NCBI GenBank assembly: GCA_001818495.1
Contig: MHKS01000005.1
Location: 250,038 to 314,037 of the forward strand
Source of the DNA: Candidatus Komeilibacteria bacterium RIFOXYD1_FULL_37_29
GTDB taxonomy: Bacteria; Patescibacteriota; Patescibacteriia; UBA1558; GWA2-36-10
Direction of reading: 5' to 3'
Length of the DNA: 64,000 nt
Program-made: the position numbers and the translations under genes
Notes under the pieces: generated by a model
Seen by the model: only the letters and a program-made list of their open reading frames with translations
Databases searched by the model: none
Told to the model about the DNA's origin: nothing
Shown: one piece after another, positions 19,597 to 39,960 of the stretch
Position numbering within the stretch: the stretch's first letter is position 1
Layout of the letters: the number at the start of each line of letters is the position of its first letter

Positions 19597-19686
19597 GGAG
19601 AGGTGCTAGAGTGGTTGAATAGGGTGCTCTCGAAAAGCACTAGTCCTGAAAGGGACTCGGGGGTTCAAATCCCTCCCTCTCCGCCA
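19597..19686 (+). tRNA. tRNA-Ser (anticodon CGA), class II with a long variable arm and an encoded CCA.
   Basis: Manual fold: acceptor GGAGAGG/CCTCTCC, D-stem CTA/TAG, anticodon stem GTGCT/AGCAC, loop CTCGAAA, 16-nt variable arm, T-loop TTCAAAT, discriminator G, CCA. Confidence 0.85.
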
Positions 19687-19706
19687 TCCTTCGCTAAAGC
19701 TACGGA

Positions 19707-20021
19707 ATGACTAGCCATATGTTATATTATACTTACATTTTATTAAGCTCAAAATCTCATATTTTTTATTTTGGTTCAACGAATAATTTAAAAAATAGAT
19801 TGGAGCTGCATAATAGCGGCAAGGTAACATCAACTAAATCGCATATACCTTGGAAATTAGTTTGGTATTGTGTATTTGAAACGGAAAAACAGGCAAGAGA
19901 TTTTGAGCTTTATTTAAAAACAGGGTCAGGAAAATCTTTTGCTTATAAAAGACTTATTTCCGTGGCTTTAGAGAAGGATTTCAGGGAAGGGAGAATAGGT
20001 AGTCCGAAGCGGAAGCCTTAG
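19707..20021 (+). CDS. Small standalone GIY-YIG nuclease-domain protein.
   Basis: YTYILLSSKSHIFYFGSTNNLKNRLELHNSG matches the GIY…YIG…R…H/N…E catalytic motif set. 104 aa. Confidence 0.7.
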   Translation: MTSHMLYYTYILLSSKSHIFYFGSTNNLKNRLELHNSGKVTSTKSHIPWKLVWYCVFETEKQARDFELYLKTGSGKSFAYKRLISVALEKDFREGRIGSPKRKP

Positions 20022-20033
20022 CTTTTGCGAAGG

Positions 20034-20051
20034 ATACCTCCCTCTCCGCCA
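20034..20051 (+). repeat. Direct repeat of the tRNA-Ser 3' end (17 of 18 nt identical to 19669-19686), an att-like site.
   Basis: ATACCTCCCTCTCCGCCA versus tRNA ATCCCTCCCTCTCCGCCA. It brackets the GIY-YIG gene. Confidence 0.75.
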
Positions 20052-20190
20052 GATTACCAAGTTTGAACCCAAGCAAAATAAGGGTTTTGTGCTATTGAAA
20101 AGCCGGTGTCCGAATAAGGTGCTGATTTTTTAAAATCCTTATCAAATGAGTAAATTTTTGGTAAAATAGAGTTAATAAGAATAGAATTAT

Positions 20191-22020
20191 ATGTCTAAAA
20201 AAATTGATTACGACAACTGGTCAAAAGATGAGATAATCAAGGAGATTAGGCGAATCAAAGAAACTACATACGGACTTGTGTGGCATCGCGACTTACCTGA
20301 GGAAAAAATTGATATTCTTATAAACCCAGATGCTCGGACTCCAAATGAAATGTTCCCTAACGAAATGGCGGGCAAGCCATTTCCAGTTTTGAAAGAGGCA
20401 AAAACAAAAACAATTGAGACTGATAAAAATAAGCCGACAAATATTTTGATTGAGGGTGATAATTATCATTCTCTTGCCGTTTTGAATTTTACTCATCAAG
20501 AAGCAATTGATTTGATTTACATTGATCCGCCTTACAATACTGGCCACAACGATTTTGTTTACAATGATAAAATTAAAAGCGGTTATGTTGTTAAAGATGA
20601 TCCATTTAGGCATAGTAAATGGATTTCTTTCATGGAAAAAAGGTTAAAACTCGCAAAAAATTTATTGAAATCGTCGGGTGTTATTTTTATTAGTATTGAC
20701 GACAATGAATTTGCTCCATTAAAAATGCTGTGTGACGAGATTTTTGATGAAAGTAATTTCATCTCTATGTTGTCAATTGAAAATAATCCTAAGGGACGGA
20801 AAAACTCCGATTTTATATCTATTTGTAATGATTATTGTCTTATATACGCTAAAGACAAAGGTAAAAGTTATTTTGTTGAAAATATTCCCAAACAAGCTGA
20901 CGACTTAACGATTGATGATAATGGAGACTATGTACACAATAGCGGCAAACGGGTCCTTGTTGGAGAAAATAAATTTAATCCGCTTGTAGAAGATTTTGAA
21001 TCAGCTAAGCATTATAGTGTTTATTACAATCAGACTGATAATAAAATTAAAATAGAGGTGGAAAAAAATATTCACGAGGCAAACAAAGATTTATTAAAAA
21101 ACGGATATAAAAGATACTATTCTTATTTTGGAGACAGATTTGTCTTGAATACTTATACAAAATCAAAAATCATAGAGCTTTTCGAAGATGAGGCTCTCGA
21201 ATTCAAAAATGGGAGTATATATGAAAAAAATTTCAGCACAACAATTAGACTAAAAAGTCTTGTTATCAATAAAAAATATGAGGCAGTAATAAATAATGAA
21301 AAAGCAGAATATCAAATAGATGTTAAAACGACTTCAGCGAAGACTGAATTAAAGGATATTTTCAACACTGACCAAATTCCATTTGATAACCCCAAGAATA
21401 TTGGTTTGATAAAATTATTGGTAACATTATTTGAAAATAAATCAATAACTATTTTAGATTTTTTTGCAGGATCGGGAACGACCGGGCATGCAGTCCTTGG
21501 TCAAAATAAAGAAGATGGAGGAAATCGACAATTTATTCTGTGCACGAATAATGAAAATAATATATGCACTGATATCTGCTATCCCCGTCTTGGAAAAGTT
21601 ATAAAGGGATATAAAAATTCAAGAAATGAAAAAATTGATGGTTTGGGTGGAAACCTGAGATATTTTACTGCTTATGACTTTGTAGAAGCTAAGGAAACAG
21701 ATAGAAACAAAAGAAAACTAGTAAACCAATCAACAGAAATGCTTTGCATTAAGGAAAATGCTTTTGAGCTTGTGCAAGAAGTTGAAGATTATAAAATCTT
21801 CAAGAATCATGATAAATATTTGGGAATTATTTTTCATGAAGATTCTATATCGGACTATGTCAAAGCAATAAAAAAGATAAAAGGACACTTTAATACTTAT
21901 ACATTTTCAATGACGGATGATCCTCACAAAGAGGAATTTACTGATGTTGCGGACAAAGTAACTCTTTGTGCAATTCCAGAAATGATTTTGAAAGTATATC
22001 ATGAGATTTTCAAGGAATAA
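20191..22020 (+). CDS. mod: Type III restriction-modification methyltransferase (Mod), a beta-class N6-adenine/N4-cytosine MTase.
   Basis: DPPY (IDPPYNTG) precedes the FxGxG SAM motif (FFAGSGTTGHAV). The adjacent helicase-type res gene overlaps. Confidence 0.75.
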   Translation: MSKKIDYDNWSKDEIIKEIRRIKETTYGLVWHRDLPEEKIDILINPDARTPNEMFPNEMAGKPFPVLKEAKTKTIETDKNKPTNILIEGDNYHSLAVLNFTHQEAIDLIYIDPPYNTGHNDFVYNDKIKSGYVVKDDPFRHSKWISFMEKRLKLAKNLLKSSGVIFISIDDNEFAPLKMLCDEIFDESNFISMLSIENNPKGRKNSDFISICNDYCLIYAKDKGKSYFVENIPKQADDLTIDDNGDYVHNSGKRVLVGENKFNPLVEDFESAKHYSVYYNQTDNKIKIEVEKNIHEANKDLLKNGYKRYYSYFGDRFVLNTYTKSKIIELFEDEALEFKNGSIYEKNFSTTIRLKSLVINKKYEAVINNEKAEYQIDVKTTSAKTELKDIFNTDQIPFDNPKNIGLIKLLVTLFENKSITILDFFAGSGTTGHAVLGQNKEDGGNRQFILCTNNENNICTDICYPRLGKVIKGYKNSRNEKIDGLGGNLRYFTAYDFVEAKETDRNKRKLVNQSTEMLCIKENAFELVQEVEDYKIFKNHDKYLGIIFHEDSISDYVKAIKKIKGHFNTYTFSMTDDPHKEEFTDVADKVTLCAIPEMILKVYHEIFKE

Positions 22021-24262
22021 TTATATGTCATGGATTAATTTTAAAAATTATCAAGAAACTGCAATCGATGAAATACGCGACAAGATTAATGCCCTGCTCA
22101 AAAAAGAGGGTAATAGACTTTGCGTATTCAAAGCTCCGACTGGTTCGGGGAAAACTTTAATGATGGCGGAATGGATGATGAGGTTTTGTGACCCATATTC
22201 GCGAATTGATGGGAAAACTTTTTCTTTTGTATGGATAGCAGTAAATAAATTACATGATCAAAGCCATGACAGTTTAAAAAAGTTTTATGAGCTCAAAGGA
22301 GCGGGGCTTCGTTGTTCATATTTTCACGAACTTGAGGATAGAAAAATAAAACAGAACGAGATTTTATTTTTGAATTGGGCAAGTATCAATAATGAAGACA
22401 AGATTATTGTTCGCGCGAATGAAAGAGATAATAATCTCTCAACAATAATTGATCGGACCAAAGATGCCAGTCGGACAATTATTTTGATTATCGACGAAAG
22501 CCACCATACCGCAAAAAGTAAAAATTCAAAGGCTTTAATAAAAAATATTGACCCTAAAATTACGATCGAGGTTTCTGCTACACCAGAAATTTTTGATTTT
22601 GATGAGCGGGTAACCATTGATATTGAGGATGTACGAAGCGAGGAAATGATAAAGAAAGAAATTGTAGTGAACCCTGGCTTCAAAAATTACACAGTTGATC
22701 CAAAAAAGAACGATCAAACAGCAGACGAATTAATCTTGAAGTCTGCTTTGCAAAAAAGGATTGATTTGCGAAAAAAATTAGAAAAAGATGGTTCAAATGT
22801 CAATCCCTTATTACTTATTCAATTACCGGATACAAAAAAAGGAGTTCCTGATAAAAAAGAGGAGATTGAAACACTTCTTGCTAAATTTGGCTATACAACA
22901 AAAAATGGAAAGTTGGCTGTCTATCTTTCTGAAAAAGATAACAAAATAAATCTTGCTAATATTGAGAAAAATGAAAACGAAGTGGAGGTAATGATGTTCA
23001 AGCAAGCGATTGCACTTGGTTGGGATTGTCCAAGAGCTACAATTCTTGTGCTTTTCCGTCAATGGAAAGATGAAACGATAACATTCTCAATCCAAACATT
23101 GGGAAGAATCATGCGTATGCCTGAGCAAAAACATTATAAAGATCAAGAGTTGAATATTGCTTATCTTTATACTAGTTTACAAGACATTAATACTCGTATT
23201 TTGAAAGGTGCTTCGTCGGGAATAAAATCTCTTACGAGTTATCGCAATGAGAAATATAAAAATATTGACCTAATTTCATATCACTCAAAACGATTCCGTG
23301 AGGAAACTCGTTTGTCTTCTGATTTTGTGAAAATTTTTATCGAAGCCGCTAAAAAAACAAATTTAAAAGATGTTTCGCTAAAAGTCGGGATTGTGAAAAC
23401 AACAATGATCAAAGATGGACGCGTGGAAAATGCGGATAAAGAAATAACAAAGATTGAAAGTGATACTTTTTCTATACCCAAAACAGAGACGGAGCTGCAA
23501 TATACTTTTGATATGTTTGTGCTTGATAATCTTGATCCGTTTGAACATGAAGCCCGTTCTATAAAACGCATAAACGATTCAATTTATACTTTCTTTGGCG
23601 CACGACGCAAAGAAGATGAATGGCCTAAAATACAAGCCACGATACTTTCGTATGAAAAGAATCGCCAAGCTGTAATTGATGCTATTAATCTAGCAAAAGA
23701 TTTATATAAAACCGAAGTTGGAAAAGGCAAAAAAGAACTGATACAAAATGATGAGCCGTGGAATGTGCCAGAAGCTATTAATTTTGATCCGTCATTTGTA
23801 GAGCAAAATTATAAAAAATCTATAATGCAACCATATTACGCTCGTTCTCGGGATGGAGAAAACGGACGATTGTTTGAGGACAGTGAAATTGAAAATGATT
23901 TTATTAAATACCTAGAAAAAGCACAGAAAGTTGTTTGGTGGTTCAGAAATGGGAAACAAGACGGATCATTTTTTGCTGTCCCGCACATTGAACACGGACA
24001 AGAAAAGCCGTTTTATGTTGATTTTATAGTTATGATGAAAAATGGAACTGTTGGGCTTTTTGATACAAAATCAGGATATACTGCCGAACTAGCAAAATCT
24101 CGCTCTGATGGACTTGTAAAATATATTAATGAGCAGAAAAAGAAAAAAATTACTGGCGGAATTGTGAGATACGAAAAGAAAAGTTGGCTATATTTTACTA
24201 ACAAAGAATATAAATATAATCCGAATGATATAAAGGATTGGGAATTTTTGGATTTGAATTAA
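22001..24262 (+). CDS. res: Type III restriction enzyme Res subunit (SF2 helicase plus C-terminal PD-DxK nuclease).
   Basis: Walker A FKAPTGSGKT, DExH IIDESHH, C-terminal VDFIV…GLFDTK. The real start is probably the ATG near 22025. Confidence 0.75.
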   Translation: MRFSRNNYMSWINFKNYQETAIDEIRDKINALLKKEGNRLCVFKAPTGSGKTLMMAEWMMRFCDPYSRIDGKTFSFVWIAVNKLHDQSHDSLKKFYELKGAGLRCSYFHELEDRKIKQNEILFLNWASINNEDKIIVRANERDNNLSTIIDRTKDASRTIILIIDESHHTAKSKNSKALIKNIDPKITIEVSATPEIFDFDERVTIDIEDVRSEEMIKKEIVVNPGFKNYTVDPKKNDQTADELILKSALQKRIDLRKKLEKDGSNVNPLLLIQLPDTKKGVPDKKEEIETLLAKFGYTTKNGKLAVYLSEKDNKINLANIEKNENEVEVMMFKQAIALGWDCPRATILVLFRQWKDETITFSIQTLGRIMRMPEQKHYKDQELNIAYLYTSLQDINTRILKGASSGIKSLTSYRNEKYKNIDLISYHSKRFREETRLSSDFVKIFIEAAKKTNLKDVSLKVGIVKTTMIKDGRVENADKEITKIESDTFSIPKTETELQYTFDMFVLDNLDPFEHEARSIKRINDSIYTFFGARRKEDEWPKIQATILSYEKNRQAVIDAINLAKDLYKTEVGKGKKELIQNDEPWNVPEAINFDPSFVEQNYKKSIMQPYYARSRDGENGRLFEDSEIENDFIKYLEKAQKVVWWFRNGKQDGSFFAVPHIEHGQEKPFYVDFIVMMKNGTVGLFDTKSGYTAELAKSRSDGLVKYINEQKKKKITGGIVRYEKKSWLYFTNKEYKYNPNDIKDWEFLDLN

Positions 24263-24265
24263 ATT

Positions 24266-25450
24266 ATGGCATTAGAATCAGAAAAATTGGAAGAAAAAAT
24301 AGTTGATAATTATTTTACTGATACTCTATATAGTAGTCGGGAATTTAAGGGTGGAGTAGGTAAATTTTTTACAATAGTATCTCAGGATGAAAATGATATC
24401 CCAAATGTAGTTGATGTTGAGCATTCGTATCCTATACGCAATAAAATAAAGACAACGCTGACATTTATCAAAAAAGAAAACGAAATTACAGCCATTTCCT
24501 TTAAGCGTTTTAAATATTATAAAAAAGAACATTGGGTTGAACAACCAGAAGAACAGATTACTTTTTCATACAGTCTTTTTAAAAAAATTATTGGGTATTT
24601 ACAGTTACTATCAGAATTAAATTTGTCGGCTATTAGTGAGCGAAGAATTGCTTTAGCCGATGACACATTACCGAATATTGACGATGAAACAAAAAAGAAG
24701 ATTAAAACATTGCTTTTACGCAAAGATGGGCAAAAAATTATTGAGGAATTAATAAATAGCGGAATAATTACATCAACCGATATTGTAAATATCGGGTATC
24801 GAAAAAAACAACTTGATGTTTTTGAGAAGCTCCTGACACAACCCGATTATTTTGCAACCTATATAACTGAAAGTAAAATTACAGATACTCGTCATGAGTC
24901 TGTTTGGCAACATTTCTTCCATTCTAATGATTGGATTTTTGGATATGGACTAGATTATCGCTTTCTTGGCATCCTGCAAAAAGAAGCTCATATTTCAAAT
25001 ACAGACGTCGCAGGAAAAGGGGCTGTTATAAATGATTTTCTACTCGGGTGCAATAAATTCACCGTTTTGGTTGAATTAAAAAAACACGACACACCATTAT
25101 TTGGAAAAGACAAAAACCGGTCAAACTCTTGGACACTTTCAGATGATTTAATATCTGGTCTATCTCAAATATTAGAGCAAAAAGCTAGTTGGCAGGTTTC
25201 GGCCGAGACAAATGCAAGTGGAAATTTTGACGATAAGGGTAATTTGATAAAACAAAAAACTATCGATCCAAAAAGTATCTTAGTTATCGGATCAACAAAG
25301 CAATTTGATGGTGATGATAAAGAAAATCAAATTAAAGCAAAAACCTTTGAACTTTTTAGACGAGATTCAAGAAATATAGAAATTCTTACTTATGACGAAC
25401 TGTATGAGAGAGCGAAGTTTATTGTTGAACATAAACAGAAAGACAACTAG
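24266..25450 (+). CDS. Protein with a C-terminal PD-(D/E)xK nuclease-like core, possibly Shedu/DUF4263-like. Third gene of the R-M operon.
   Basis: E…VINDFLL…VLVELKK fits an E-D-ExK arrangement. Start lies 4 nt after the res stop. Confidence 0.45.
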   Translation: MALESEKLEEKIVDNYFTDTLYSSREFKGGVGKFFTIVSQDENDIPNVVDVEHSYPIRNKIKTTLTFIKKENEITAISFKRFKYYKKEHWVEQPEEQITFSYSLFKKIIGYLQLLSELNLSAISERRIALADDTLPNIDDETKKKIKTLLLRKDGQKIIEELINSGIITSTDIVNIGYRKKQLDVFEKLLTQPDYFATYITESKITDTRHESVWQHFFHSNDWIFGYGLDYRFLGILQKEAHISNTDVAGKGAVINDFLLGCNKFTVLVELKKHDTPLFGKDKNRSNSWTLSDDLISGLSQILEQKASWQVSAETNASGNFDDKGNLIKQKTIDPKSILVIGSTKQFDGDDKENQIKAKTFELFRRDSRNIEILTYDELYERAKFIVEHKQKDN

Positions 25451-25793
25451 GTTTAAATAGAATAATCCACCTCATTTTTGCTCTTATCTGATTTTAGCTT
25501 CGGTGTCTCAAACCATTCTGGATGAACCTTGAACATAGCCCTTAATTCGCGTATACTTTTATCAATATCCTTAAATTTGAACCACTTTTTTGGTTCAAAC
25601 TTCGGGACATCGCCACCGCCACTCGATTCGCATTTTGCTTCGCAAAAAGCTCACTCGTGATCTACGGTGCTAAAGCACCTTCGACCATTCTAATTCTAGA
25701 ATCGAGTGTATTGAGCGAGCGTAGCGAGTCGAAAGGCACGCGCTATCGTGCTAGCATAAGTGTATTAAAAAATTTCTATATAGTTATTAAAAT

Positions 25794-26387
25794 ATGGATC
25801 AACAAACAATCAATACATACAACAGGATGTCACAAGAGTATGATGATGAAACAGCTGATTTTTGGGAGCGATTTCCTCGAACATTTCTTGATAAATTTAT
25901 TAAGCTATCCGGTAATAAAATACTTGATGTTGGGAGCGGACCAGGTAGAGATGGTTTGATACTTCAACAGGCCGGTAAAAATGTTGTCTGTGTGGATGCT
26001 TCTGCAGCAATGGTGAAATTGTCTTCAGACAGAGGTTTAAACTCTATAGTAGCCAGTTTCGACAATTTACCATTTGAAAATAATTCATTTGACGGCGTAT
26101 GGTCATATACTGCTCTTTTACATATTCCCAAAAAATCTATCGATACCCCTCTTCAAGAGATTTTTCGTATTATCAAACCTTCAGGTATTTTTGCTCTTGG
26201 TCTGATTGAAGGGGACACAGAAGGATACAAAGAAAGCTCTGAAGTGACTATGCCTCGTTGGTTTAGTTTCTATCAGAAAGACGAAGTTGAAAATTTATGC
26301 CAAAAGCACGGATTTGAGCTGGTTTACTTTGAGACTTTTAAACCAGGGTCCAAGCCCTATTTGAATTTTATTTTTCGAAAAATATAA
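25794..26387 (+). CDS. Class I SAM-dependent methyltransferase (small, 197 aa).
   Basis: ILDVGSGPGRDG motif I, post-I acidic residue, DGVWSYTALLH motif. Confidence 0.7.
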   Translation: MDQQTINTYNRMSQEYDDETADFWERFPRTFLDKFIKLSGNKILDVGSGPGRDGLILQQAGKNVVCVDASAAMVKLSSDRGLNSIVASFDNLPFENNSFDGVWSYTALLHIPKKSIDTPLQEIFRIIKPSGIFALGLIEGDTEGYKESSEVTMPRWFSFYQKDEVENLCQKHGFELVYFETFKPGSKPYLNFIFRKI

Positions 26388-26417
26388 TACTACTAGAACA
26401 TTTTTATCTATCTCAAT

Positions 26418-26665
26418 TTTCACTGTCTTTTCAGGCAGTTTTTTGGTATAATCAAAGCATTAATTAATAAAAATATTATGATTGACGAAGAAATAAAGCA
26501 AATTATTCAGGAAAATAAGGACACTTTGGCTAATATTGATAAAAGGATTGGTCGGATTGAGAAAAATTTTATTTGGAGTTCAATTTTTGGTTTTATAAAG
26601 ATTGTTATTATTGTAGCACCGATTGTTTTTGGTATTATTTATTTTACGCCATTTTTGAAAGATTT
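26418..26665 (+). repeat. Left copy of an approximately 248-bp direct repeat (promoter plus the 5' portion of a small membrane-protein gene).
   Basis: About 95% identical to 33401-33648. Confidence 0.85.
26444..26452 (+). promoter_or_regulatory. Extended -10 promoter element (TGgTATAAT) for the small membrane-protein gene. An identical copy lies at 33427-33435.
   Basis: TGGTATAAT 26 nt upstream of the ATG, duplicated inside the direct repeat. Confidence 0.55.
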
Positions 26666-26690
26666 AAATAAATTGGGTATTATTACATAA
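26478..26690 (+). CDS. Small coiled-coil/TM protein, a truncated paralog of 33461..33811.
   Basis: The first 60 aa are nearly identical to the 33461 copy, then the sequence diverges and ends. Confidence 0.55.
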   Translation: MIDEEIKQIIQENKDTLANIDKRIGRIEKNFIWSSIFGFIKIVIIVAPIVFGIIYFTPFLKDLNKLGIIT

Positions 26691-26707
26691 TTAAGAAATG
26701 GTAGTAT

Positions 26708-28426
26708 ATGAAAAAGTCAAAAGTCATATTAGGGATTACTGCCTTTAATCATGATTCTTCGGCGTGCTTAATTTATCAAGGTAGAGTAATTGCATTTTGT
26801 GAGGAGGAAAGATTCAATGGCATAAAACATACCGGAGATTTTCCGATAAAATCAATTTTATTTTGTTTAGAAAAAGCTGGTTTGTCATTAAATGATGTGA
26901 CTGATGTAGCTTTTTATTTTAATATTAAAAAATGTTTATTGAGTTATATAAAGAACAATAATCCACTCTATTATATTATTCATCCATCTTTATTTAAGAG
27001 GAAAAGATTTTATTATGAAATTATTTGGTTATTTAGTTTTATAAACAAAATTAATTCAATTAAAAAACTCCTTAATAATTATAAGATAAAGATTACTTAT
27101 GTAGATCATCATATGGCGCACGCTTGGTATGGGTATTTTTCTTCAAATTTTAAAAATTGCACGGTAGTTTCTAATGACAGCGTAGGCGAGAGTGTGAGTA
27201 GTTTAGCCGTAAAGATACAGAGAGAAGATAAAAAAATTATTTTTGGTAAGACATTCAGTCAAACAGACCCTCACTCTATTGGGTATTTGTATGGTGCTAT
27301 AACTGAATTTTTAGGATTCAAAAGAGGTCAAGACGAAGGAAAGGTTATGGCTATGGCGGCTTTAGGGAAAGATAAATATGTAAAATATTTTGATGACTTG
27401 ATTAGATATTTACCTAATGGGGAATTTAGAATAAGTAAGGAGTTGATTTCCTTACGTAATTTTCAGCCAAAATCACAAAGATTAAGCAATGATTTTTTAA
27501 AAAAATTTGGATATTATCGTCAACCCCAAGAACCATTTATCCAAAAGCATTATGATATTGCTTATGCAATACAAGGGGTAACGGAAAAAATTTTATATCA
27601 CCAATTAAAATATATTAATGATGATAATATAGTCATTACTGGTGGTATTGCTCAAAATAGTGTAGCCAACGGGAAACTCAACAATTTTTTTTATAAAAGA
27701 AATATATTTATTCCTCCGATTCCTAATGATGCCGGGTGTGGTATTGGCGCGGCGCTTTCTTTATATTATAAGTATTATGAAGATTTACCAGAGTTTGTGG
27801 ATACTGCGTTTTTAGGCCCAGAATTTTCTGATCATAAAATCATTAAAACATTAGAAAATAATAAAATAAATTTTAAAATTATAAAAAATCAGACGGAATT
27901 CATTATTAATGAGCTTTTGAAAAATAAGATTATCGCTATATATAGAAATGAGATGGAGTGTGGTCCTAGGGCATTAGGTAATAGGAGTATAATAGCCAAT
28001 CCAATTGATCCGGCGATGAAGAATTACATCAATGAAAAAATAAAACACCGTGAATTTTTTCAGCCATACGGCGGGTTGATTATTGATAAAAATGTTAAAG
28101 AAGTATTTGATTATAAGAATAAAAATATTTCCGGACCATATATGTCTTTTGTTTATCCAATTAAAGATAAATGGTTAAAAATGTTTCCATCTTTGGTTCA
28201 TTTTGATAAAACTTCTAGAATTCAAATAATAAAGAAGGAACAAAATTTTTTATATAGTCTCTTGGAAGAATTTTATAAAAAAACAGGTGTCCCCGTAATT
28301 ATAAATACTTCCCTTAATTTAAGAGGGCAGCCTATGGCAAGAAGCCATCAAGATGCTTTAAACACATTTTATAATTCGGGGATTCATTATATTTTATTTA
28401 ATAACAGTATTCTAGTTTCAAAATGA
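26708..28426 (+). CDS. Carbamoyltransferase, NodU/CmcH/NovN family (O-carbamoyltransferase).
   Basis: N-terminal ILGITAFNHDSSACL…CEEERFNGIKH and DHHMAHAW, the hallmarks of the NodU/CmcH family. 572 aa. Confidence 0.75.
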   Translation: MKKSKVILGITAFNHDSSACLIYQGRVIAFCEEERFNGIKHTGDFPIKSILFCLEKAGLSLNDVTDVAFYFNIKKCLLSYIKNNNPLYYIIHPSLFKRKRFYYEIIWLFSFINKINSIKKLLNNYKIKITYVDHHMAHAWYGYFSSNFKNCTVVSNDSVGESVSSLAVKIQREDKKIIFGKTFSQTDPHSIGYLYGAITEFLGFKRGQDEGKVMAMAALGKDKYVKYFDDLIRYLPNGEFRISKELISLRNFQPKSQRLSNDFLKKFGYYRQPQEPFIQKHYDIAYAIQGVTEKILYHQLKYINDDNIVITGGIAQNSVANGKLNNFFYKRNIFIPPIPNDAGCGIGAALSLYYKYYEDLPEFVDTAFLGPEFSDHKIIKTLENNKINFKIIKNQTEFIINELLKNKIIAIYRNEMECGPRALGNRSIIANPIDPAMKNYINEKIKHREFFQPYGGLIIDKNVKEVFDYKNKNISGPYMSFVYPIKDKWLKMFPSLVHFDKTSRIQIIKKEQNFLYSLLEEFYKKTGVPVIINTSLNLRGQPMARSHQDALNTFYNSGIHYILFNNSILVSK

Positions 28427-29247
28427 TTAAAGATTTTCAAAAGATAGAGTTTTTAAAATCACTTTACAGTGATAAAGACTTAATATCGTTTCGTGGCAAT
28501 TTTTTAAAAAATAATTCCAACCGTAAATTCTCATTAAGATCTTTTATTATTAAACTTTTGCCGATGCTAAAGGATAAAAAAATATTAGACATTGGTTGCG
28601 GAGACGGGTCATTCCTCAATAAATTACATACGGTATATCCTCAAAATAAATATTTTGGTTTGGATGTAGTAGATAATGCTAAATGCCATAAATTGAAATT
28701 TCTTGACTACAAAATTTATGATGGTAAATCCAGGGTTTATTATACGGAAAAATTTGATGTGATATTTTGTATGCACACTGTTTATCATATCGAAGATTTA
28801 TTCACTTTTTTTACAACGATGAAAGACTATTTAAAGCCCCATGGCATTATTATCATTACTACGAAGTCTAAATTGACTTTTCCTAAAATAGAATCAATCT
28901 TTTTAAAGATTGTCGGTAAGCTTGACTTAAAAAAATATTTAAAAATTAGCAAACACAGAGAGGAATCAAAATTTTGTTTGGAGAACGGATTAAACAGATT
29001 AAAAAAACACTTCGCTAGGCGGTCATTTAGTATAAATGAGTATGTTTTAGAAACGCAGGTTTTTGTTAATGACAAAAAAGATCTTTTGAAATATGTTTTT
29101 TCTACAAATAGATATAATATTTTGAAAGATACTTTAAACAAAAAAATTGTTGAAAAATATACAAAACTTTGGTTTGAAGAAATTGATAAAGATCAGATAT
29201 TCATTGATAAATATACGGAGGCTGTTTATTTAATAAAAAAATTATGA
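28423..29247 (+). CDS. Class I SAM-dependent methyltransferase.
   Basis: ILDIGCGDGSF motif I, D at the end of beta2, FDVIFCMHTVYH. Overlaps its neighbours and lies in the operon. Confidence 0.7.
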   Translation: MIKDFQKIEFLKSLYSDKDLISFRGNFLKNNSNRKFSLRSFIIKLLPMLKDKKILDIGCGDGSFLNKLHTVYPQNKYFGLDVVDNAKCHKLKFLDYKIYDGKSRVYYTEKFDVIFCMHTVYHIEDLFTFFTTMKDYLKPHGIIIITTKSKLTFPKIESIFLKIVGKLDLKKYLKISKHREESKFCLENGLNRLKKHFARRSFSINEYVLETQVFVNDKKDLLKYVFSTNRYNILKDTLNKKIVEKYTKLWFEEIDKDQIFIDKYTEAVYLIKKL

Positions 29248-30311
29248 AAATAGGTTATAGTTGCTGGGGATTTTTGGGTAACGGAATAAAGGATACACCG
29301 GATGGCGGGAGGAGTCACCGGTTGACTTTATTGAAAGAATTAATCCGTCAAGGAGTTGAAATAGTAATGTTGCAAAAGAATAGAGACCTCATTGAAGGCA
29401 ATCAAAGTTTTTCACGAAAGAATTTAATATTTAGTGGTGAGTTACCGGAAATAGATGCTCTATTTGTAGAATATAGATGGAAGATAGTAGGAAGGAATTA
29501 TAAGGTGAGAAAAAATAATCCAGCCTATACTCCGGATTTCGATAGACAGAGTGAATTAATTAATTTTTATAATAATAGAAATATTCCTATTATTATTTGG
29601 GATAAAGATCAGAAACTTGGTAAGAATGAAATAAAAGGCATTAAAAATTTGATTGTATTTGAACCTGCTTTAAAGCCAAGGTTTAATAGAAAAAGTTTAT
29701 TGTTTCCGATGGACAATCATAGAACAAAAATTGTCCTCAAATTGATAGGTAAGTATAAAAAAAATATTAAGAGCTCCAAGTTGTGTTACATTGGAAATCA
29801 ATATGAGAGAGATGGTAGTTTTAAAGAGTTTATTAATAAGCCAGCCAGTATGCTCGATACCAAAACACCAGTATTTGGTAATTGGAACAAATATCCAGAA
29901 AAGTATAAGCAAAATATGCAAAAATTTTCCAATGTTGAATTTAAAGGTAGGGTGCAGTTTAATAAAGTTAATAATATTTATAAAAAATCTTTTTCTACAG
30001 TTCTTATCGCGCCACGGAGATATTATATCACGGGTCATTTTACACAAAGATTATTTGAGGCAATGTGGGGCTTATGCATTCCTTTTACCCCGCAGCAATA
30101 TCATGGATGGCAGGGTTTAATAATAAAAGATTTTATAATTAGATCTGGCAAAGATTTAATAAATAAGATAAAAAAATTAGAAACAACGCCCGATTCAGAT
30201 ATAAGGAGAATGTTTGATAGACAGTTTGAGAAACTTAATTTATTTAATGCCAGTAAACAAGCCAGTATAATTATAAACGAAATCAATAATCATAATGGTA
30301 GACTCGGGTAA
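29244..30311 (+). CDS. GT-B glycosyltransferase resembling phage T4 DNA beta-glucosyltransferase (BGT), a candidate hydroxymethyl-pyrimidine DNA glycosyltransferase.
   Basis: 355 aa versus BGT at 351 aa. An MKI…N-terminus, YIGNQYERDGSFKEFI against BGT YGGSFRSGQRESKMVEFL, and FTQRLFEAMWGLCIPF against BGT ITLRVWETMASDAVMLI. The comparison is from memory and needs confirmation. Confidence 0.5.
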   Translation: MKIGYSCWGFLGNGIKDTPDGGRSHRLTLLKELIRQGVEIVMLQKNRDLIEGNQSFSRKNLIFSGELPEIDALFVEYRWKIVGRNYKVRKNNPAYTPDFDRQSELINFYNNRNIPIIIWDKDQKLGKNEIKGIKNLIVFEPALKPRFNRKSLLFPMDNHRTKIVLKLIGKYKKNIKSSKLCYIGNQYERDGSFKEFINKPASMLDTKTPVFGNWNKYPEKYKQNMQKFSNVEFKGRVQFNKVNNIYKKSFSTVLIAPRRYYITGHFTQRLFEAMWGLCIPFTPQQYHGWQGLIIKDFIIRSGKDLINKIKKLETTPDSDIRRMFDRQFEKLNLFNASKQASIIINEINNHNGRLG

Positions 30312-31074
30312 TAAAAATAAATCTTTAGAAATTGTAATTGATTCTAAACACTATATTAAAAAAAGATATTCTGATATCCAACGTTTTTTTTGTGAATTAA
30401 AATATCTTAAATATTTTAAAGATGAAGATATCAATGTTCCTTTTATATATAAATTTGATAAAATCCAAAAAACAATAATAATAGATAAAATAAAGGGGAA
30501 AATCGGCGATTCATTAAATAATAGAGACACAAAACTATGCATTGATGTGCTTGTCAAAATAATTTTTATTTTTGGTTTGGAAAAGAAAAATAATAATGAA
30601 ATTGATAGGTATATTTCAAAAGTCAGGTCAAATATAATATGGTGGTGTGAAAATAATAATTATATAGTAGAAAAAGAAAAATTAAATATTTTACTTCAAA
30701 AGTTAAGAAAAGTGTGTTATATATCTTTATTCAAAGATGCCAAACCATCTAATTGGATTTTTCAAAAAGATAAAATATACGCAATAGACTTTGATTATGT
30801 AAAAAAATCATTTTTTTTAGCAGATTTAGCACAACTTTTAAGTTATATTTCATTAAGGAAAAAAATAAGTTATATTTTCTTTGTAAATTATTATCTAAAG
30901 CAAATATTCCCAAAAATGAAGGATTATGATAAATTTTATATACCTTTTAAATTAGCGCTTGTTAATTCCAACATTGCTTCTGAACTTCACAGAGAGAATT
31001 TAGGAGCCTATGTAAAAAGGGGTTTTGCCAAACAAAACAGGTTTATTTTGAGTGAATTTAAGATAATATTATAA
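30295..31074 (+). CDS. Small protein-kinase-like fold phosphotransferase (Kdo-kinase/APH-like).
   Basis: Catalytic-loop-like FKDAKPSNWIF (D-x-K-P-x-N) and IYAIDFDY (DFG-equivalent). 259 aa. Confidence 0.5.
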   Translation: MVDSGNKNKSLEIVIDSKHYIKKRYSDIQRFFCELKYLKYFKDEDINVPFIYKFDKIQKTIIIDKIKGKIGDSLNNRDTKLCIDVLVKIIFIFGLEKKNNNEIDRYISKVRSNIIWWCENNNYIVEKEKLNILLQKLRKVCYISLFKDAKPSNWIFQKDKIYAIDFDYVKKSFFLADLAQLLSYISLRKKISYIFFVNYYLKQIFPKMKDYDKFYIPFKLALVNSNIASELHRENLGAYVKRGFAKQNRFILSEFKIIL

Positions 31075-31955
31075 TGTCAATATCAATAACCGCCAAATCA
31101 GCTAATGAAGCATTCATTAAAATAGCTGATAAATTGTATAATAATCCGGAATATGTTTCTAGTCCTCGAAGCTGGGAAACAAGGGAGTTATTAGGGGCTT
31201 TTATTGTTATCAACAATCCCTATGATCGTTTTATAAATAATGTTCATAGGAAGATTTCTTTAAAGTATCTTATTGGTGAATGGTTATGGTATGAGCGAGG
31301 ATCCAATTCTTTAAATGAAATTAATTATTATGCAAAATTTTGGAGCAGTATTTCGGATGATAAAATAACTGCCAATTCAGCTTATGGTCATAGAATTTTA
31401 GGGATCAATAAGTTCGTGATTATTAATCAATGGAAGTGGGCCAAACGGCAAATAATAAAAGATAAGGAAACAAGGAGAGCCATCATTTTTATTGGATTGC
31501 CAAGTGATATGAAAAACGAAACGAAAGATTTTCCTTGCACTATGTCACTCCAGTTTTTAATAAGAAATAATGAGTTACATTTAATTTGCAATATGAGGAG
31601 CAATGATTTAGTATTGGGTTTTACTTATGATGTAGCTACCTTTACTTTATATCAAGAAAAAATGTTGTTGGAGTTGAAAAAATATTATCCAAAATTAAAG
31701 ATAGGTAAATATTTTCATATGGTAGGCAGTTTACACGTATATAAGAAAAACTATGAGATGATAAAAAAAGTGATAAATGATCAGGACAATAATTTGAAAA
31801 TTACCATGCCTCGCATGGGTGATTTAAAAGAAATAAAAAAACTCCAGTATAACGAGAGTATTATAAGAGAAAATAAAAATAAAAAGTTTAAAAAAATTGA
31901 AGATAGATTCTGTATCTGGTGTCAGAATATTTTATTAAATAAAATTAAATACTAA
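31074..31955 (+). CDS. Thymidylate-synthase-family pyrimidine hydroxymethylase, predicted dCMP hydroxymethylase (T4 gp42-like).
   Basis: ThyA-fold motifs EWLWYERG, catalytic Cys in FPCTMSLQF and MRSNDLVLGFTYDVATF. This aligns gap-free to E. coli ThyA QRSCDVFLGLPFNIASY with Asp at the Asn177 position, which is the cytosine-specificity switch. Confidence 0.6.
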   Translation: MSISITAKSANEAFIKIADKLYNNPEYVSSPRSWETRELLGAFIVINNPYDRFINNVHRKISLKYLIGEWLWYERGSNSLNEINYYAKFWSSISDDKITANSAYGHRILGINKFVIINQWKWAKRQIIKDKETRRAIIFIGLPSDMKNETKDFPCTMSLQFLIRNNELHLICNMRSNDLVLGFTYDVATFTLYQEKMLLELKKYYPKLKIGKYFHMVGSLHVYKKNYEMIKKVINDQDNNLKITMPRMGDLKEIKKLQYNESIIRENKNKKFKKIEDRFCIWCQNILLNKIKY

Positions 31956-31956
31956 A

Positions 31957-32628
31957 ATGAAAGGCATAATTATAGACGGAGTTGTTTCTTCTGGTAAAAC
32001 GTCTATCTTAAAACATCTTCATCGTCTGATTTCAGAACAAAACCCTACTTCAACCAAGTTTTTTATTAGTGAACACTATACTGAGAGAATGTTGGAGCAT
32101 TTGAAAGATAAAGGTGAATTAGACGGTAGCCATATAAAAGCCCACGTTGATCAGTTAATCCATACTTTAGCTTCTTTTCAGTCTATGTTGGATAATTCTA
32201 AGTTTCGTGATAACCCGAAAGGAGCAGATTTGTTTGTTACTTTAGAAAGATTTATTCTAACCCATTTGTCCTCAGTGGACATAGGAGATAAATATAGTCT
32301 TGATGAAGTCAAAGCTCATTTTGAAATTTTAAACAAGCTAGGAGTAAAACAAGTAGCTTTAATAATTCCCGAATCAAGACTAAAAGAAAATATCATGTCG
32401 ACTCTGCAATATCGAAATGACGCCTGGTTGGATTATTTGTATTCTAGGGGTGGAGAAAAAGAAATTATAGAATATTATATCAATTGGCAGAATAATTTTT
32501 TAGAGTATATCAACAAATTTAAAGATATAATAGATACCTTAGTCATCGAAGTAAAAGATCAAGACTATCTTCAATATAGTAATACTATTTTTAATAGTTG
32601 TATTAAATCAGATATTCTCTCAAAATAA
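31957..32628 (+). CDS. P-loop nucleotide kinase (dNMP-kinase-like, possibly T4 gp1-like, or a 5-hm-pyrimidine kinase).
   Basis: Walker A GVVSSGKTS similar to T4 gp1 GVKRSGKDT. No Tmk DRY/TxEPGG motifs. 223 aa. Confidence 0.45.
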   Translation: MKGIIIDGVVSSGKTSILKHLHRLISEQNPTSTKFFISEHYTERMLEHLKDKGELDGSHIKAHVDQLIHTLASFQSMLDNSKFRDNPKGADLFVTLERFILTHLSSVDIGDKYSLDEVKAHFEILNKLGVKQVALIIPESRLKENIMSTLQYRNDAWLDYLYSRGGEKEIIEYYINWQNNFLEYINKFKDIIDTLVIEVKDQDYLQYSNTIFNSCIKSDILSK

Positions 32629-33114
32629 ATGTTTTTTAATTTTATGTTTTTTATACTTTACCCCGGCTAAATCAAAGAGTTTTTTAGAAACGATAAAATT
32701 ATTCGCATCTTTGTCTGATCTATCATCTTGATAGATTATATTTTTTATGCCGCTTTGGATAATAATTTTTGCACACTCATTGCAGGGGAAGAGTAAACAG
32801 TAAAGTTTTGCATTTTCGGCTGATTGATTAGTATTTAAAATGGCATTTACTTCAGCGTGAACAACATACGGATATTTTGTATTTAAGATATTTTTTTTGT
32901 TATGCCCGTAATTATTACTCCAAGAAAAATGCCCTTCCTTAATACCTCTAGGCCAACCGTTGTAGCCAACTCCTAAAACAACATTATTTTTATCAACCAC
33001 GACAGCTCCGGTTTGAGTTGATGGGTCTTTTGATCTCTGAGCTATAACTTGAGCCATTAGCATAAATGTTTCATCCCACGATAAATAGTTTTTTCTAGCT
33101 TTTATATTATCCAT
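32620..33114 (-). CDS. dCMP deaminase (deoxycytidylate deaminase, zinc-dependent).
   Basis: HAEVNAI and PCNECAKII zinc-binding motifs. 164 aa. Confidence 0.85.
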   Translation of the reverse strand: MDNIKARKNYLSWDETFMLMAQVIAQRSKDPSTQTGAVVVDKNNVVLGVGYNGWPRGIKEGHFSWSNNYGHNKKNILNTKYPYVVHAEVNAILNTNQSAENAKLYCLLFPCNECAKIIIQSGIKNIIYQDDRSDKDANNFIVSKKLFDLAGVKYKKHKIKKHLF

Positions 33115-33400
33115 TTTTGTAGGTTAGATCACTTTATAAGAATATAATACCCCATACTTATCTTAAAAGTCAAAGATTATAACTATTATTTTTATGTCGA
33201 AACTAGTCAACAAACTAAAACCGAGAAAAATTTTTGGTTGTCAGAAAGAAGCTTGAATAATATAGGCAAGAAAGAGAGTTTTATTATAATGCTCGGAGGA
33301 GATATGTGAAATATTATGAACCAAACATTTAATTCGCAATGATTACTGGTTGTTCTATATAAAAAGATAGAGCCGTTAGTGTTAGTTGACGATTTCTGTT

Positions 33401-33648
33401 TTTCACTGTCTTTTCAGGCAGTTTTTTGGTATAATCAAAGCATTAATTAATAAAAATATTATGATTGACGAAGAAATAAAGCAAATTATTCAGGAAAATA
33501 AGGAAACTTTAGCTAATATTGATAAAAGAATTGGTCGGATTGAGAAAAATTTTATTTGGAGTTCAATTTTTGGTTTTGTAAAGATTGTTATTATTTTAGG
33601 GCCGATTATTTTTGGTATTATTTATTTTACGCCATTTTTAAAAGATTT
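33401..33648 (+). repeat. Right copy of the approximately 248-bp direct repeat.
   Basis: About 95% identical to 26418-26665. Confidence 0.85.
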
Positions 33649-39381: not shown

Positions 39382-39960
39382 ATGAATTTTAAAGAGGAAA
39401 AAACATTTGTGATGATCAAGCCGGACGGTGTCCGCAAGAATCTGATTGGCGAAATTATTGCTCGTTTTGAACAACGCGATTTAAAAATAGTAGCTTTGGA
39501 AATGTTTCAGCCAACTGTTGCCCAGATTGATGAGCATTATCCCAAGGATAAGGCTTGGATCGCTCGCTTGGGTCAAAAAACTTTAAGTACTTATGAAAAA
39601 TACGGAGTTGATCCGATTAAAGAGCTGGGTACTGACAATGATTTTGAAATTGGTCAGATGGTCCGCAAGTGGTTGGTTGATTATATGACCTCTGCTCCTT
39701 TGGTTAGAATGGTGGTCCAAGGTATTCATGCGGTTGATATGGTTCGTAAAATTTGCGGTGTCACTATTCCCAATATGGCTGACATGGGTACTATTCGTGG
39801 TGATTTTTCCTCTGATTCTCCTTCAGTAGCTAATAGTGAAAAAAGAGCAGTAATGAATTTGATCCATGCGTCTGAAACTCCGCAAGAAGCTGAACACGAA
39901 ATGAAACATTGGTTTGGAAGCAGAAAGGTTATATTCAATTACGAGCGTTACCAAGATTAA
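39382..39960 (+). CDS. ndk: Nucleoside diphosphate kinase.
   Basis: TFVMIKPDGV, and His in NLIHASE. 192 aa with an insertion. Confidence 0.8.
   Translation: MNFKEEKTFVMIKPDGVRKNLIGEIIARFEQRDLKIVALEMFQPTVAQIDEHYPKDKAWIARLGQKTLSTYEKYGVDPIKELGTDNDFEIGQMVRKWLVDYMTSAPLVRMVVQGIHAVDMVRKICGVTIPNMADMGTIRGDFSSDSPSVANSEKRAVMNLIHASETPQEAEHEMKHWFGSRKVIFNYERYQD

Follow-up and report, generated by a model that had tools for sequence, protein, structure and literature searches.

Chemical elaboration of DNA through 5-hydroxymethylcytosine (hmC) is regarded as a trick that phages use against the defences of their hosts. The classic example is the T-even pathway, in which a dCMP hydroxymethylase (gp42 of T4) is accompanied by a nucleotide kinase (gp1), a dCTPase (gp56), a dCMP deaminase and the DNA glucosyltransferases BGT and AGT. 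A different phage system makes 5-carbamoyloxymethylcytosine, and its published signature is a carbamoyltransferase together with a thymidylate synthase homologue that carries Asp at position 177 (D177; Yang et al., eLife 2021, PMC8670742). The clusters behind the glycosylated 5-hydroxycytosine of phages RB69, DLP3, and RL38JI combine a thymidylate synthase homologue with a deoxynucleoside monophosphate kinase, DNA glycosyltransferases and genes for NDP-sugars (Lee et al., NAR 2026, PMC13326640). Here we describe a cassette that draws on the logic of several of these systems and is borne by a cell. It lies within a 64,000-nt stretch (the window) of contig MHKS01000005.1 (positions 250,038 to 314,037) from Candidatus Komeilibacteria bacterium RIFOXYD1_FULL_37_29, a bacterium of the Candidate Phyla Radiation (CPR). 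Phages provide the precedent both for the chemistry of the first step and for hmC that bears a glycosyl or carbamoyl group; the cell-borne cassette appears to be new.

The list of open reading frames (ORFs), together with Pfam, NCBIfam, and PHROG scans, delimits an operon-like block of seven genes at 26708-33114:

26708..28426, + strand: O-carbamoyltransferase of the NodU/TobZ/NovN family (Pfam, PHROG, and PDB matches)
28423..29247, + strand: class I S-adenosylmethionine (SAM)-dependent methyltransferase (Pfam Methyltransf_23/31/11)
29244..30311, + strand: GT-B glycosyltransferase of a small CgeB-like family, 355 aa (predicted structure, family motifs)
30295..31074, + strand: small-molecule kinase with a protein kinase fold (APH/Bud32/LPS-kinase-like), 259 aa (weak Pfam/NCBIfam matches, motifs)
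31074..31955, + strand: predicted dCMP 5-hydroxymethylase of the thymidylate synthase superfamily, 293 aa (PDB matches, diagnostic residues)
31957..32628, + strand: P-loop kinase with a thymidylate-kinase-like fold, 223 aa (predicted structure)
32620..33114, - strand: dCMP deaminase, convergent, 164 aa (Pfam dCMP_cyt_deam_1)

A first-pass annotation, made from the letters of this DNA alone, had described four of these genes as a T4-like toolkit. It placed all four exactly, with the correct strands (29244-30311, 31074-31955, and 31957-32628 on +, 32620-33114 on -), but it missed the carbamoyltransferase, the methyltransferase and the kinase at 30295-31074, along with the repeats that flank the block. 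It also proposed a translationally coupled operon. The operon is larger than was thought, but coupling is plausible from the coordinates alone because neighbouring gene ends on the + strand overlap or abut (28423/28426, 29244/29247, 30295/30311, 31074/31074, and 31955/31957). The overlap between the glycosyltransferase gene and the kinase gene that follows it is 17 nt, and the convergent 3' ends of the P-loop kinase and deaminase genes overlap by 9 nt. None of the seven ORFs is interrupted, and the genes are closely coupled. A promoter scan returned 52 promoter-like sites against 49 expected for DNA this rich in AT.

The product of 31074-31955 belongs to the thymidylate synthase superfamily (Pfam Thymidylat_synt, PF00303, 5e-22). 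Among all PDB chains its best match is MilA (1.5e-30, 109 bits), followed by T4 gp42 (1.3e-17), with thymidylate synthases at 1e-13 and weaker. Against the NCBIfam thymidylate synthase equivalog its best score is 62.7 bits, where the cut-off is 327. Individual residues were read from an alignment with E. coli ThyA, MilA, and T4 gp42, and ThyA numbering is used here. The catalytic residues Cys146, Glu58, Tyr94, Arg166, His207, and Tyr209 are all conserved. At positions 126, 143, 146, 147, 165, 167, 168, 169, 173, and 177 the window enzyme has R, D, C, T, M, S, N, D, G, and D, and T4 gp42 is identical. The first-pass annotation had already pointed to the Asp that occupies the place of Asn177 in E. 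coli ThyA and had called the protein a dCMP hydroxymethylase; the alignment bears this out with the full T4-type signature.

What would these residues do? The change of Asn177 to Asp is the switch from uracil to cytosine as substrate (PMC8670742; PMC5175136). Where Asp or Glu replaces Leu143, the products tend to carry hydroxymethyl instead of methyl (PMC13326640), and the window enzyme has an acidic Asp143, as water access for hydroxymethylation would demand. In MilA, Lys133 and Ala176 confer a preference for ribo-CMP, whereas Arg and Ser give deoxy specificity, as the A176S/K133R mutagenesis indicates (PMC5175136); the window enzyme has the deoxy-specific pair, Arg126 and Ser167. Asn in place of Asp169 is the mark of flavin-dependent 5-hydroxy-dCMP synthases (PMC13326640). 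Asp169 is kept in the window protein and in 84 of 84 cassette homologues, so hydroxymethyl chemistry is predicted. Asp177 is present in the window protein and in 83 of the 84. More broadly, the signature RDCTSDD (positions 126/143/146/147/167/169/177) occurs in 120 of 124 alignment rows, the window protein and T4 gp42 included; the rows are 120 listed homologues from a database of 5.8 billion proteins plus E. coli ThyA, MilA, T4 gp42, and the window protein itself.

Several other assignments were rejected on these grounds. A 5-hydroxy-dCMP synthase of the RB69 gp48 type would have Asn169, not Asp169. CMP specificity of the MilA/BcmA type goes with Lys133/Ala176, not with Arg/Ser. A canonical ThyA has Asn177, His147, and Leu143, where the window enzyme has Asp177, Thr147, and Asp143, and its score falls below the family cut-off. 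By every sequence criterion available, then, the protein is predicted to be a dCMP hydroxymethylase, and a housekeeping role as ThyA is effectively excluded.

The P-loop kinase has no family match of its own in the Pfam, NCBIfam, and PHROG scans. A sequence search of all PDB chains returned only spurious matches to de-novo TIM barrels, with neither gp1 nor any solved kinase among them. A sequence-based model was more informative. The AlphaFold model, which took an alignment of homologues as input, is confident, with a predicted local distance difference test (pLDDT) score of 89, and shows the Walker A motif, a central five-stranded sheet, an ER/DR motif after strand 3 and a lid arginine. As modelled, the fold is that of a thymidylate-kinase/YorR-like nucleoside monophosphate kinase. 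Natural fusions of about 500 aa (P0205, P0209, P0217, and P0244) join a dCMP hydroxymethylase with the T4 signature to a thymidylate-kinase-like domain (PF02223). The hydroxymethylase part is about 45% identical to the window enzyme, and the fusions lie on phage-like contigs of about 50 kb. These fusions support a role as hm-dCMP kinase, and it is a reasonable functional reading of the model that the protein makes hm-dCDP from hm-dCMP. Thus the candidate function proposed at first pass gains from the fold and the fusions, but membership of the gp1 family does not survive, and the Walker A motif that had been called gp1-like is a generic one. Only 31 homologues of this kinase are detectable, all on CPR-like metagenome contigs, several of which also encode the glycosyltransferase. 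A 52%-identical homologue stands without a cassette in Candidatus Buchananbacteria (L006, 10001-10651), downstream of a UvrD-like helicase and a 200-aa protein, which indicates that the family is not strictly bound to the cassette.

The 355-aa glycosyltransferase is equally obscure to sequence methods. It, too, lacks a family match of its own in the Pfam, NCBIfam, and PHROG scans, and a phmmer search of the PDB matched no glycosyltransferase and gave no similarity to GT63 or GT72 sequences, so a structure prediction was needed. The model is confident. Among 48,164 chains compared by structure, T4 BGT and AGT are in the top 8, and the two Rossmann domains of the GT-B fold superimpose on BGT. 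The model thus identifies the protein as a putative GT-B glycosyltransferase whose likeness to BGT is real at the level of the fold but not specific. The claim that this gene encodes a GT-B protein resembling BGT holds to that extent, and it is helped by phage relatives that sit beside a hydroxymethylase (see below), but the protein is not a member of GT63. At E<=1e-3, a search of 1.84 billion representatives gathers its family into 791 clusters at 50% identity. The invariant motifs are G-Y-S-x-W-G-F-L, D-T-P-D-G-G-R-S-H-R, W-D-K-D-Q-K, G-N-Q-Y-E-R-D, and T-Q-R-L-F-E, and the window protein has DTPDGGRSHR, WDKDQK, GNQYERD, and TQRLFEA. Distant relatives carry PF13524 (Glyco_trans_1_2, a CgeB-like domain). 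This is a small new GT-B family tied to hmC, just as the P-loop kinase represents a family without annotation. Its expected action is to put a sugar on the 5-hydroxymethyl group of cytosine.

The remaining proteins fall into recognised families. The carbamoyltransferase has both characteristic domains (Pfam Carbam_trans_N, 1.2e-41, and Carbam_trans_C, 3.6e-54), matches phrog_1601 (1.7e-112) and has PDB matches to 7xb6 (9e-66), GdmN, NovN, and TobZ. The family depends on carbamoyl phosphate and ATP. The presence of both domains in a gene co-located with a D177 thymidylate synthase homologue is the combination expected of a 5hmC O-carbamoyltransferase (the MetaGPA enzyme). The carbamoyl group would go either to the 5-CH2OH or to a hydroxyl on the sugar attached to hmC. 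The sugar may be the site used, since the glycosyltransferase either vies for the 5-CH2OH or acts on it first. The protein-kinase-fold kinase gives weak matches to Pfam APH (0.0035), NCBIfam Bud32 (2e-6) and Bud32 in the PDB, has a D-A-K-P-S-N catalytic loop and a DFD motif, and has actinobacterial counterparts that match APH. In metagenomes it is found naturally fused to the glycosyltransferase (P0006, 51% identity, P0010, and P0014; 592-618 aa). Presumably it phosphorylates a hydroxyl of the sugar or of the base adduct. The methyltransferase gene accompanies those for the carbamoyltransferase and glycosyltransferase in CPR, Rickettsiales, Amoebophilaceae, and Anaerolineae loci, with an analogous methyltransferase in actinobacterial loci.

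The convergent deaminase was correctly recognised from the outset (dCMP_cyt_deam_1, PF00383, 2.4e-23; phrog_174, 6.7e-39), and its translation holds the HAE ('VHAEVNA') and PCxxC ('PCNECAK') motifs of zinc deaminases. Such a gene adjoins the cassette in six CPR loci (L003/L004, L005, L012, L013, and L092). Since it recurs in varied positions and orientations, a functional linkage can be argued. In public annotation the proteins of the cassette are called 'hypothetical', 'thymidylate synthase' or 'glycosyltransferase family protein', and one kinase homologue 'thymidylate kinase'.

How might these enzymes work together? The strongly supported first step would be conversion of dCMP to 5-hm-dCMP by the predicted hydroxymethylase, using methylene-tetrahydrofolate and water. 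The P-loop kinase, on the evidence of its fold and the fusions, would then take hm-dCMP to hm-dCDP, and the nucleoside diphosphate kinase of the cell (Ndk, 39382-39960) would presumably supply hm-dCTP. The deaminase would trim the dCMP pool toward dUMP and dTMP synthesis, as in T-even phages. The modified base would enter DNA at replication, after which the GT-B enzyme would glycosylate the 5-CH2OH. The three tailoring enzymes would then attach carbamoyl and methyl groups (on oxygen) and phosphate to the sugar, or directly to some of the hmC. CPR bacteria rely on salvage for their nucleotides. If deoxycytidine nucleotides come in at the level of dCMP, one could speculate that the hydroxymethylase and the deaminase together divert much of the pool without any dCTPase. 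Phage-type DNA hypermodification that resides in bacterial genomic islands has a precedent in the Dpd 7-deazaguanine islands. However, Dpd inserts its base post-replicatively by transglycosylation, whereas the cassette described here would need the deoxynucleoside triphosphate (dNTP) pool.

Very likely, hm-dC nucleotides are what the cassette produces, and its enzymes go on to derivatise the hydroxymethylcytosine moiety. That it acts on the DNA of the cell itself, as a cell-borne and elaborated version of phage-type cytosine hypermodification, is the reading that we prefer, with a probability of roughly 0.48. The product would be a cellular and more elaborate counterpart of phage glucosyl-hmC or 5-carbamoyloxymethyl-C, as the carbamoyltransferase, the methyltransferase and the second kinase imply, and it would plausibly protect DNA from nucleases.

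The cassette compares with the known systems in an uneven way. It shares with the T-even pathway the overall logic, the active-site signature of the first enzyme, a partner with a nucleotide kinase fold, a linked dCMP deaminase and a GT-B enzyme that is structurally as close to BGT and AGT as to anything else. Unlike that pathway it is carried by a cell, lacks a gp56-type dCTPase, uses a thymidylate-kinase/YorR-like kinase with no sequence kinship to gp1, has a glycosyltransferase of a distinct CgeB-like family without similarity to GT63 or GT72 and adds three tailoring enzymes (for carbamoyl, methyl, and phosphate groups). It resembles the 5-carbamoyloxymethyl-C system in pairing a NodU/TobZ-family carbamoyltransferase with a D177/T147 thymidylate synthase homologue and a dCMP deaminase, but differs from it in the glycosyltransferase, the lack of a MazG-type gene, the cellular host and a carbamoyltransferase identity of 24-30%. 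The enzymes of the RB69, DLP3, and RL38JI clusters have Asn169, use flavin and make 5-hydroxy-dCMP, whereas the window enzyme has Asp169. Like the MilA and BcmA clusters (mildiomycin and bacimethrin) the cassette is bacterial, chromosomal and rich in tailoring enzymes, with MilA as the best solved match; however, those enzymes have the ribo-CMP pair Lys133/Ala176 where the window enzyme has Arg/Ser, and the cassette has no MilB-type N-glycosidase.

The cassette is not peculiar to this genome, and comparison between genomes supplies the strongest evidence about it. A scan of one genome per species found glycosyltransferase relatives in 312 genomes. Most are Actinobacteria (Streptomyces, Kitasatospora, Micromonospora, and others); the rest include Paceibacterota, Saccharibacteria, Woesebacteria, Rickettsiales, Amoebophilaceae, Bdellovibrionales, Anaerolineae, and Solirubrobacterales. 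For comparison, 89 loci carrying the glycosyltransferase were fetched and the neighbours within 10 kb were counted. A thymidylate synthase homologue is present in 84 of the 89, with both Asp143 and Asp177 in 83 of these 84, and a carbamoyltransferase is present in 82. All of the genes except the deaminase (six) recur in shuffled order in CPR loci L005, L012, and L013 and in Rickettsiales locus L014. Neither a carbamoyltransferase nor a methyltransferase is present in the Bdellovibrionales locus L016. Several CPR cassettes have a sulfotransferase gene between the APH-like kinase and the hydroxymethylase (L004, 4946-6106; L013, 11818-12960; L092, 11819-12961), which implies that the product has a sulfated form as well, and weaker sulfotransferase homologues are found in five actinobacterial loci.

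Actinobacterial loci follow the order epimerase, hydroxymethylase, carbamoyltransferase, glycosyltransferase, 167-aa P-loop protein, methyltransferase, and APH kinase, and some add a His-phosphatase, a second APH, NUDIX, cytidylyltransferase, and HAD genes. A large version in Streptomyces (L002/L001, Streptomyces nigrescens CP114202.1, and about 35 other loci) has HAD, a 623-aa protein, two APH kinases, His-phosphatase, epimerase, an NAD enzyme resembling S-adenosylhomocysteine (AdoHcy) hydrolase, NUDIX, cytidylyltransferase, and GerE/HATPase regulators. Mobilisation or phage-like genes lie near some copies (NikA/MobC in Kitasatospora setae, Amidase_2 and WhiB in Nonomuraea). Because the cassette is found in actinomycetes that can be cultivated (Kitasatospora setae KM-6054, at about 3.63 Mb of AP010968.1, and Streptomyces nigrescens, at about 7.07 Mb of CP114202.1), the nature of its product is directly testable. 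A divergent gene for a protein of about 450 aa stands upstream of the cassette in both of these species (L093, 4379-5710, in Kitasatospora setae; L002, 1850-3241, in Streptomyces nigrescens). A precomputed Pfam label calls it SP15_N, while our own scan gave only weak TPR matches; it may be a dedicated regulator.

Viral relatives of the glycosyltransferase are rare. A tblastn search of 50,697 sequenced phages (INPHARED) gave no match, and four contigs were found among the 2.9 million of IMG/VR (L007-L010). All four keep the invariant residues of the N-domain, and all four have the same gene order: glycosyltransferase, D177 hydroxymethylase, and DNA polymerase III alpha. Primase, RecA, and tail protein genes lie near these modules. 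L010 adds a sugar-1-phosphate nucleotidyltransferase, a small P-loop kinase and a protein of the uracil-DNA glycosylase (UDG) superfamily, L008 a UDP-galactopyranose mutase and a radical SAM enzyme, and L009 a second gene resembling a glycosyltransferase. This layout is the standard architecture of clusters for glycosyl-hypermodification of phage DNA (PMC13326640), and the nucleotidyltransferase and UDP-Galp mutase genes recall the RB69/DLP3/RL38JI clusters in particular. These contigs are probably uncharacterised glycosyl-hmC phages. None of the four has a carbamoyltransferase, methyltransferase or APH-like gene. A carbamoyltransferase does occur next to a hydroxymethylase-kinase fusion and Pol III alpha at 8215-14256 of L095 (JGI 3300035502), a 52-kb phage-like contig with a primase. 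Judged by gene content, the same group of phages would seem to set either a glycosyltransferase or a carbamoyltransferase beside the hydroxymethylase, and the bacterial cassette to combine both.

How the cassette came to be where it is bears on its interpretation. The surroundings contain the following features:

19597..19686, + strand: tRNA-Ser (cga), left edge of a low-GC variable island (ARAGORN)
20191..22020, + strand: methyltransferase Mod of a type III restriction-modification system, outside the cassette (PADLOC MTase_III, 1.9e-76)
22001..24262, + strand: helicase/endonuclease Res of the same type III class, neighbour (PADLOC REase_III, 4.7e-20; PHROG DNA helicase)
24266..25450, + strand: Shedu defence nuclease SduA (DUF4263), neighbour (PADLOC SduA, 1.7e-154)
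25794-26387: stand-alone SAM methyltransferase, neighbour in the island
26417..26665, + strand: 249-nt direct repeat, left copy (repeat search D1, alignment)
33400..33648, + strand: 249-nt direct repeat, right copy (repeat search D1, alignment)
39382..39960, + strand: housekeeping nucleoside diphosphate kinase Ndk, context only (Pfam NDK, 7.7e-36)

A low-GC stretch of about 13.5 kb (19597-33400) opens just past the tRNA-Ser gene and takes in Mod, Res, SduA, the methyltransferase, and the cassette. GC falls from about 0.38-0.42 to 0.32-0.34 at 20-26 kb and to 0.27-0.30 over the cassette. In layout it is a classic example, in a CPR genome, of a variable or defence island linked to a tRNA gene, and the type III restriction-modification system that had been noted beside the modification genes is indeed there, upstream, with Shedu SduA following it. 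The 249-nt direct repeats bracket the cassette with 96% identity and a spacing of 6983. Within each lie a hairpin that resembles a terminator, a promoter-like region and some 62 codons from the 5' end of a gene for a small membrane protein; that gene is truncated at the left copy (ORF 26478-26690) and intact at the right copy (33386/33461-33811), upstream of prfB. In composition and structure the cassette has the appearance of a 7-kb low-GC insertion that was acquired horizontally. The footprint of the repeats looks like that expected of Campbell-type integration, in which a circular DNA of about 7 kb would have entered by homologous recombination. The locus sits on a genuine chromosome, flanked by genes for FtsA, FtsZ, NrdR, YbeY, RF2, ComEC, Ndk, EF-G, EF-Tu, and ribosomal proteins. 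It had been described as encoded by the host rather than by a phage, and the chromosomal setting upholds this, but the genes are horizontal acquisitions, as the low GC, the direct repeats and the tRNA-linked island attest.

What, then, weighs against modification of the DNA of the cell? No dCTPase/MazG, dedicated polymerase, nuclease or modification-dependent partner is conserved with the cassette, and the lack of a conserved dCTPase/MazG or polymerase leaves full replacement of cytosine unexplained. The phage connection is distant, with 23-30% identity for the glycosyltransferases and only 24-30% for the window carbamoyltransferase against those of phages. The 223-aa kinase of CPR cassettes and the 167-aa P-loop protein of Actinobacteria align in hhalign over the P-loop only; they appear to be analogous, and the alignment does not support orthology beyond the P-loop. 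No report of modified DNA in any host of the cassette was found in the searchable literature, nor was any description of the cassette, its glycosyltransferase family or its kinase family found there. Further points on this side suggest a product of another kind. The tailoring set (carbamoyl, methyl, and phosphate, with sulfate in some loci) is typical of nucleoside or sugar natural products, and the best solved match of the hydroxymethylase, MilA, is an enzyme of antibiotic (mildiomycin) biosynthesis. The large Streptomyces versions resemble biosynthetic gene clusters in their sugar-nucleotide genes, paired APH kinases, phosphatases and regulators. Streptomyces hydroxymethylases have Gly at position 167, which is reminiscent of the Ala of MilA, so ribonucleotides may be accepted. 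In Agrobacterium tumefaciens (L091, QSNR01000020.1, 8322-17223) the cassette is followed by an ABC ATPase and two ABC-2 membrane proteins and lies among opine-type uptake genes, which hints at a secreted product there.

Could the product be soluble? A 5-hydroxymethyl-(deoxy)cytidine nucleoside or nucleotide that is decorated but stays free, and is never polymerised into the DNA of its producer, might act as an antibiotic or agrocin-like toxin on neighbours or hosts, or as a nucleotide analogue against phages. Besides the MilA kinship, the BGC-like (biosynthetic gene cluster) Streptomyces loci with their epimerase, cytidylyltransferase, NUDIX, HAD, His-phosphatase, and GerE/HATPase genes, the Gly167 and the missing dCTP-excluding enzyme, such a product would account for transferases of carbamoyl, methyl, and sulfo groups, APH-type kinases and phosphatases, which are classic tailoring and self-protection enzymes, and for the kinship of the carbamoyltransferase with NovN, GdmN, and TobZ. 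However, Arg126 and Ser167, the pair that goes with deoxy specificity, occur in the window enzyme and in most of its homologues, and an enzyme with a nucleoside monophosphate kinase fold is, like the dCMP deaminase, hard to square with a natural product made at the monophosphate level. Targeted searches of the fetched loci found no exporter conserved with the cassette, L091 being the sole locus with one, and the CPR cassettes come without a regulator, transporter or resistance gene. In addition, the phage members of the family sit inside replication modules and the window cassette sits in a defence island. A tblastn search of PLSDB plasmids for the glycosyltransferase found no relative, which speaks against a tie to the agrocin-434 plasmid of strain K84, provided that this plasmid is in PLSDB. 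On balance we regard a soluble product as less likely than modification of DNA, but as a serious alternative to it.

Perhaps instead the cassette is cargo, a module by which a phage, satellite or integrative element modifies its own DNA, or the decaying remnant of one. The 7-kb low-GC insertion between direct repeats would fit, as would the mobilisation and phage-like genes near some actinobacterial copies and the fact that the phage relatives are the sole family members with a clear DNA context. Nevertheless, the ORF and Pfam scans of the cassette and its surroundings reveal no gene for an integrase, a capsid, a tail or replication, and the seven ORFs are all intact and closely coupled. Four distant viral relatives of the glycosyltransferase, themselves without the carbamoyltransferase, methyltransferase or APH-like genes, stand against 312 cellular species, and the absence of matches in INPHARED and PLSDB indicates that the cassette is not cargo of a known phage or plasmid. 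This makes mobile-element cargo improbable. It is far less probable still that ordinary ThyA, Tmk, and dCMP deaminase genes for dTMP merely lie beside unrelated genes for tailoring a cell-surface glycan. The public labels of the homologues point that way, and a small CPR genome could place such genes anywhere, but a ThyA that methylates dUMP could not have Asp177, Asp143, and Thr147 (PMC8670742, PMC13326640). The equivalog score, the linkage of the thymidylate synthase homologue to the glycosyltransferase across phyla in shuffled order (84/89 loci), and the absence of the whole unit from the ancestral site all count against it too.

Modification of cellular DNA thus remains our preferred reading, and if it is true, this would be a new category of cellular genome chemistry, with effects on restriction, sequencing, cloning and phage-host biology. 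A more sweeping version is that some or all of the genomic cytosine is exchanged, via the dNTP pool, for glycosylated and carbamoylated, methylated or phosphorylated 5-hydroxymethylcytosine in this Komeilibacteria lineage, in other CPR bacteria, in bacteria that live inside cells or as predators, and in hundreds of actinomycetes; this is tentative and, as a whole, rather unlikely. It would make this the first case of a cellular chromosome whose bases are hypermodified ahead of replication, by a mobile cassette of six to seven genes that merges the glycosyl-hmC and carbamoyl-hmC strategies. Either way, a conserved mobile cassette with what has been taken for phage chemistry is found in CPR bacteria, obligate symbionts or predators, and Streptomyces-type actinomycetes. 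Either cells also rewrite the chemistry of their own DNA or there is a widespread and unrecognised class of natural products derived from deoxycytidine.

Elsewhere in the window, a giant ORF of 3578 aa (77-10813) encodes an N-terminal domain resembling a type IV secretion system (T4SS) pilin followed by He_PIG/Big_5 Ig-like repeats. Two proteins with TSP3 repeats come after it; the giant protein is of a type typical of CPR surface proteins.

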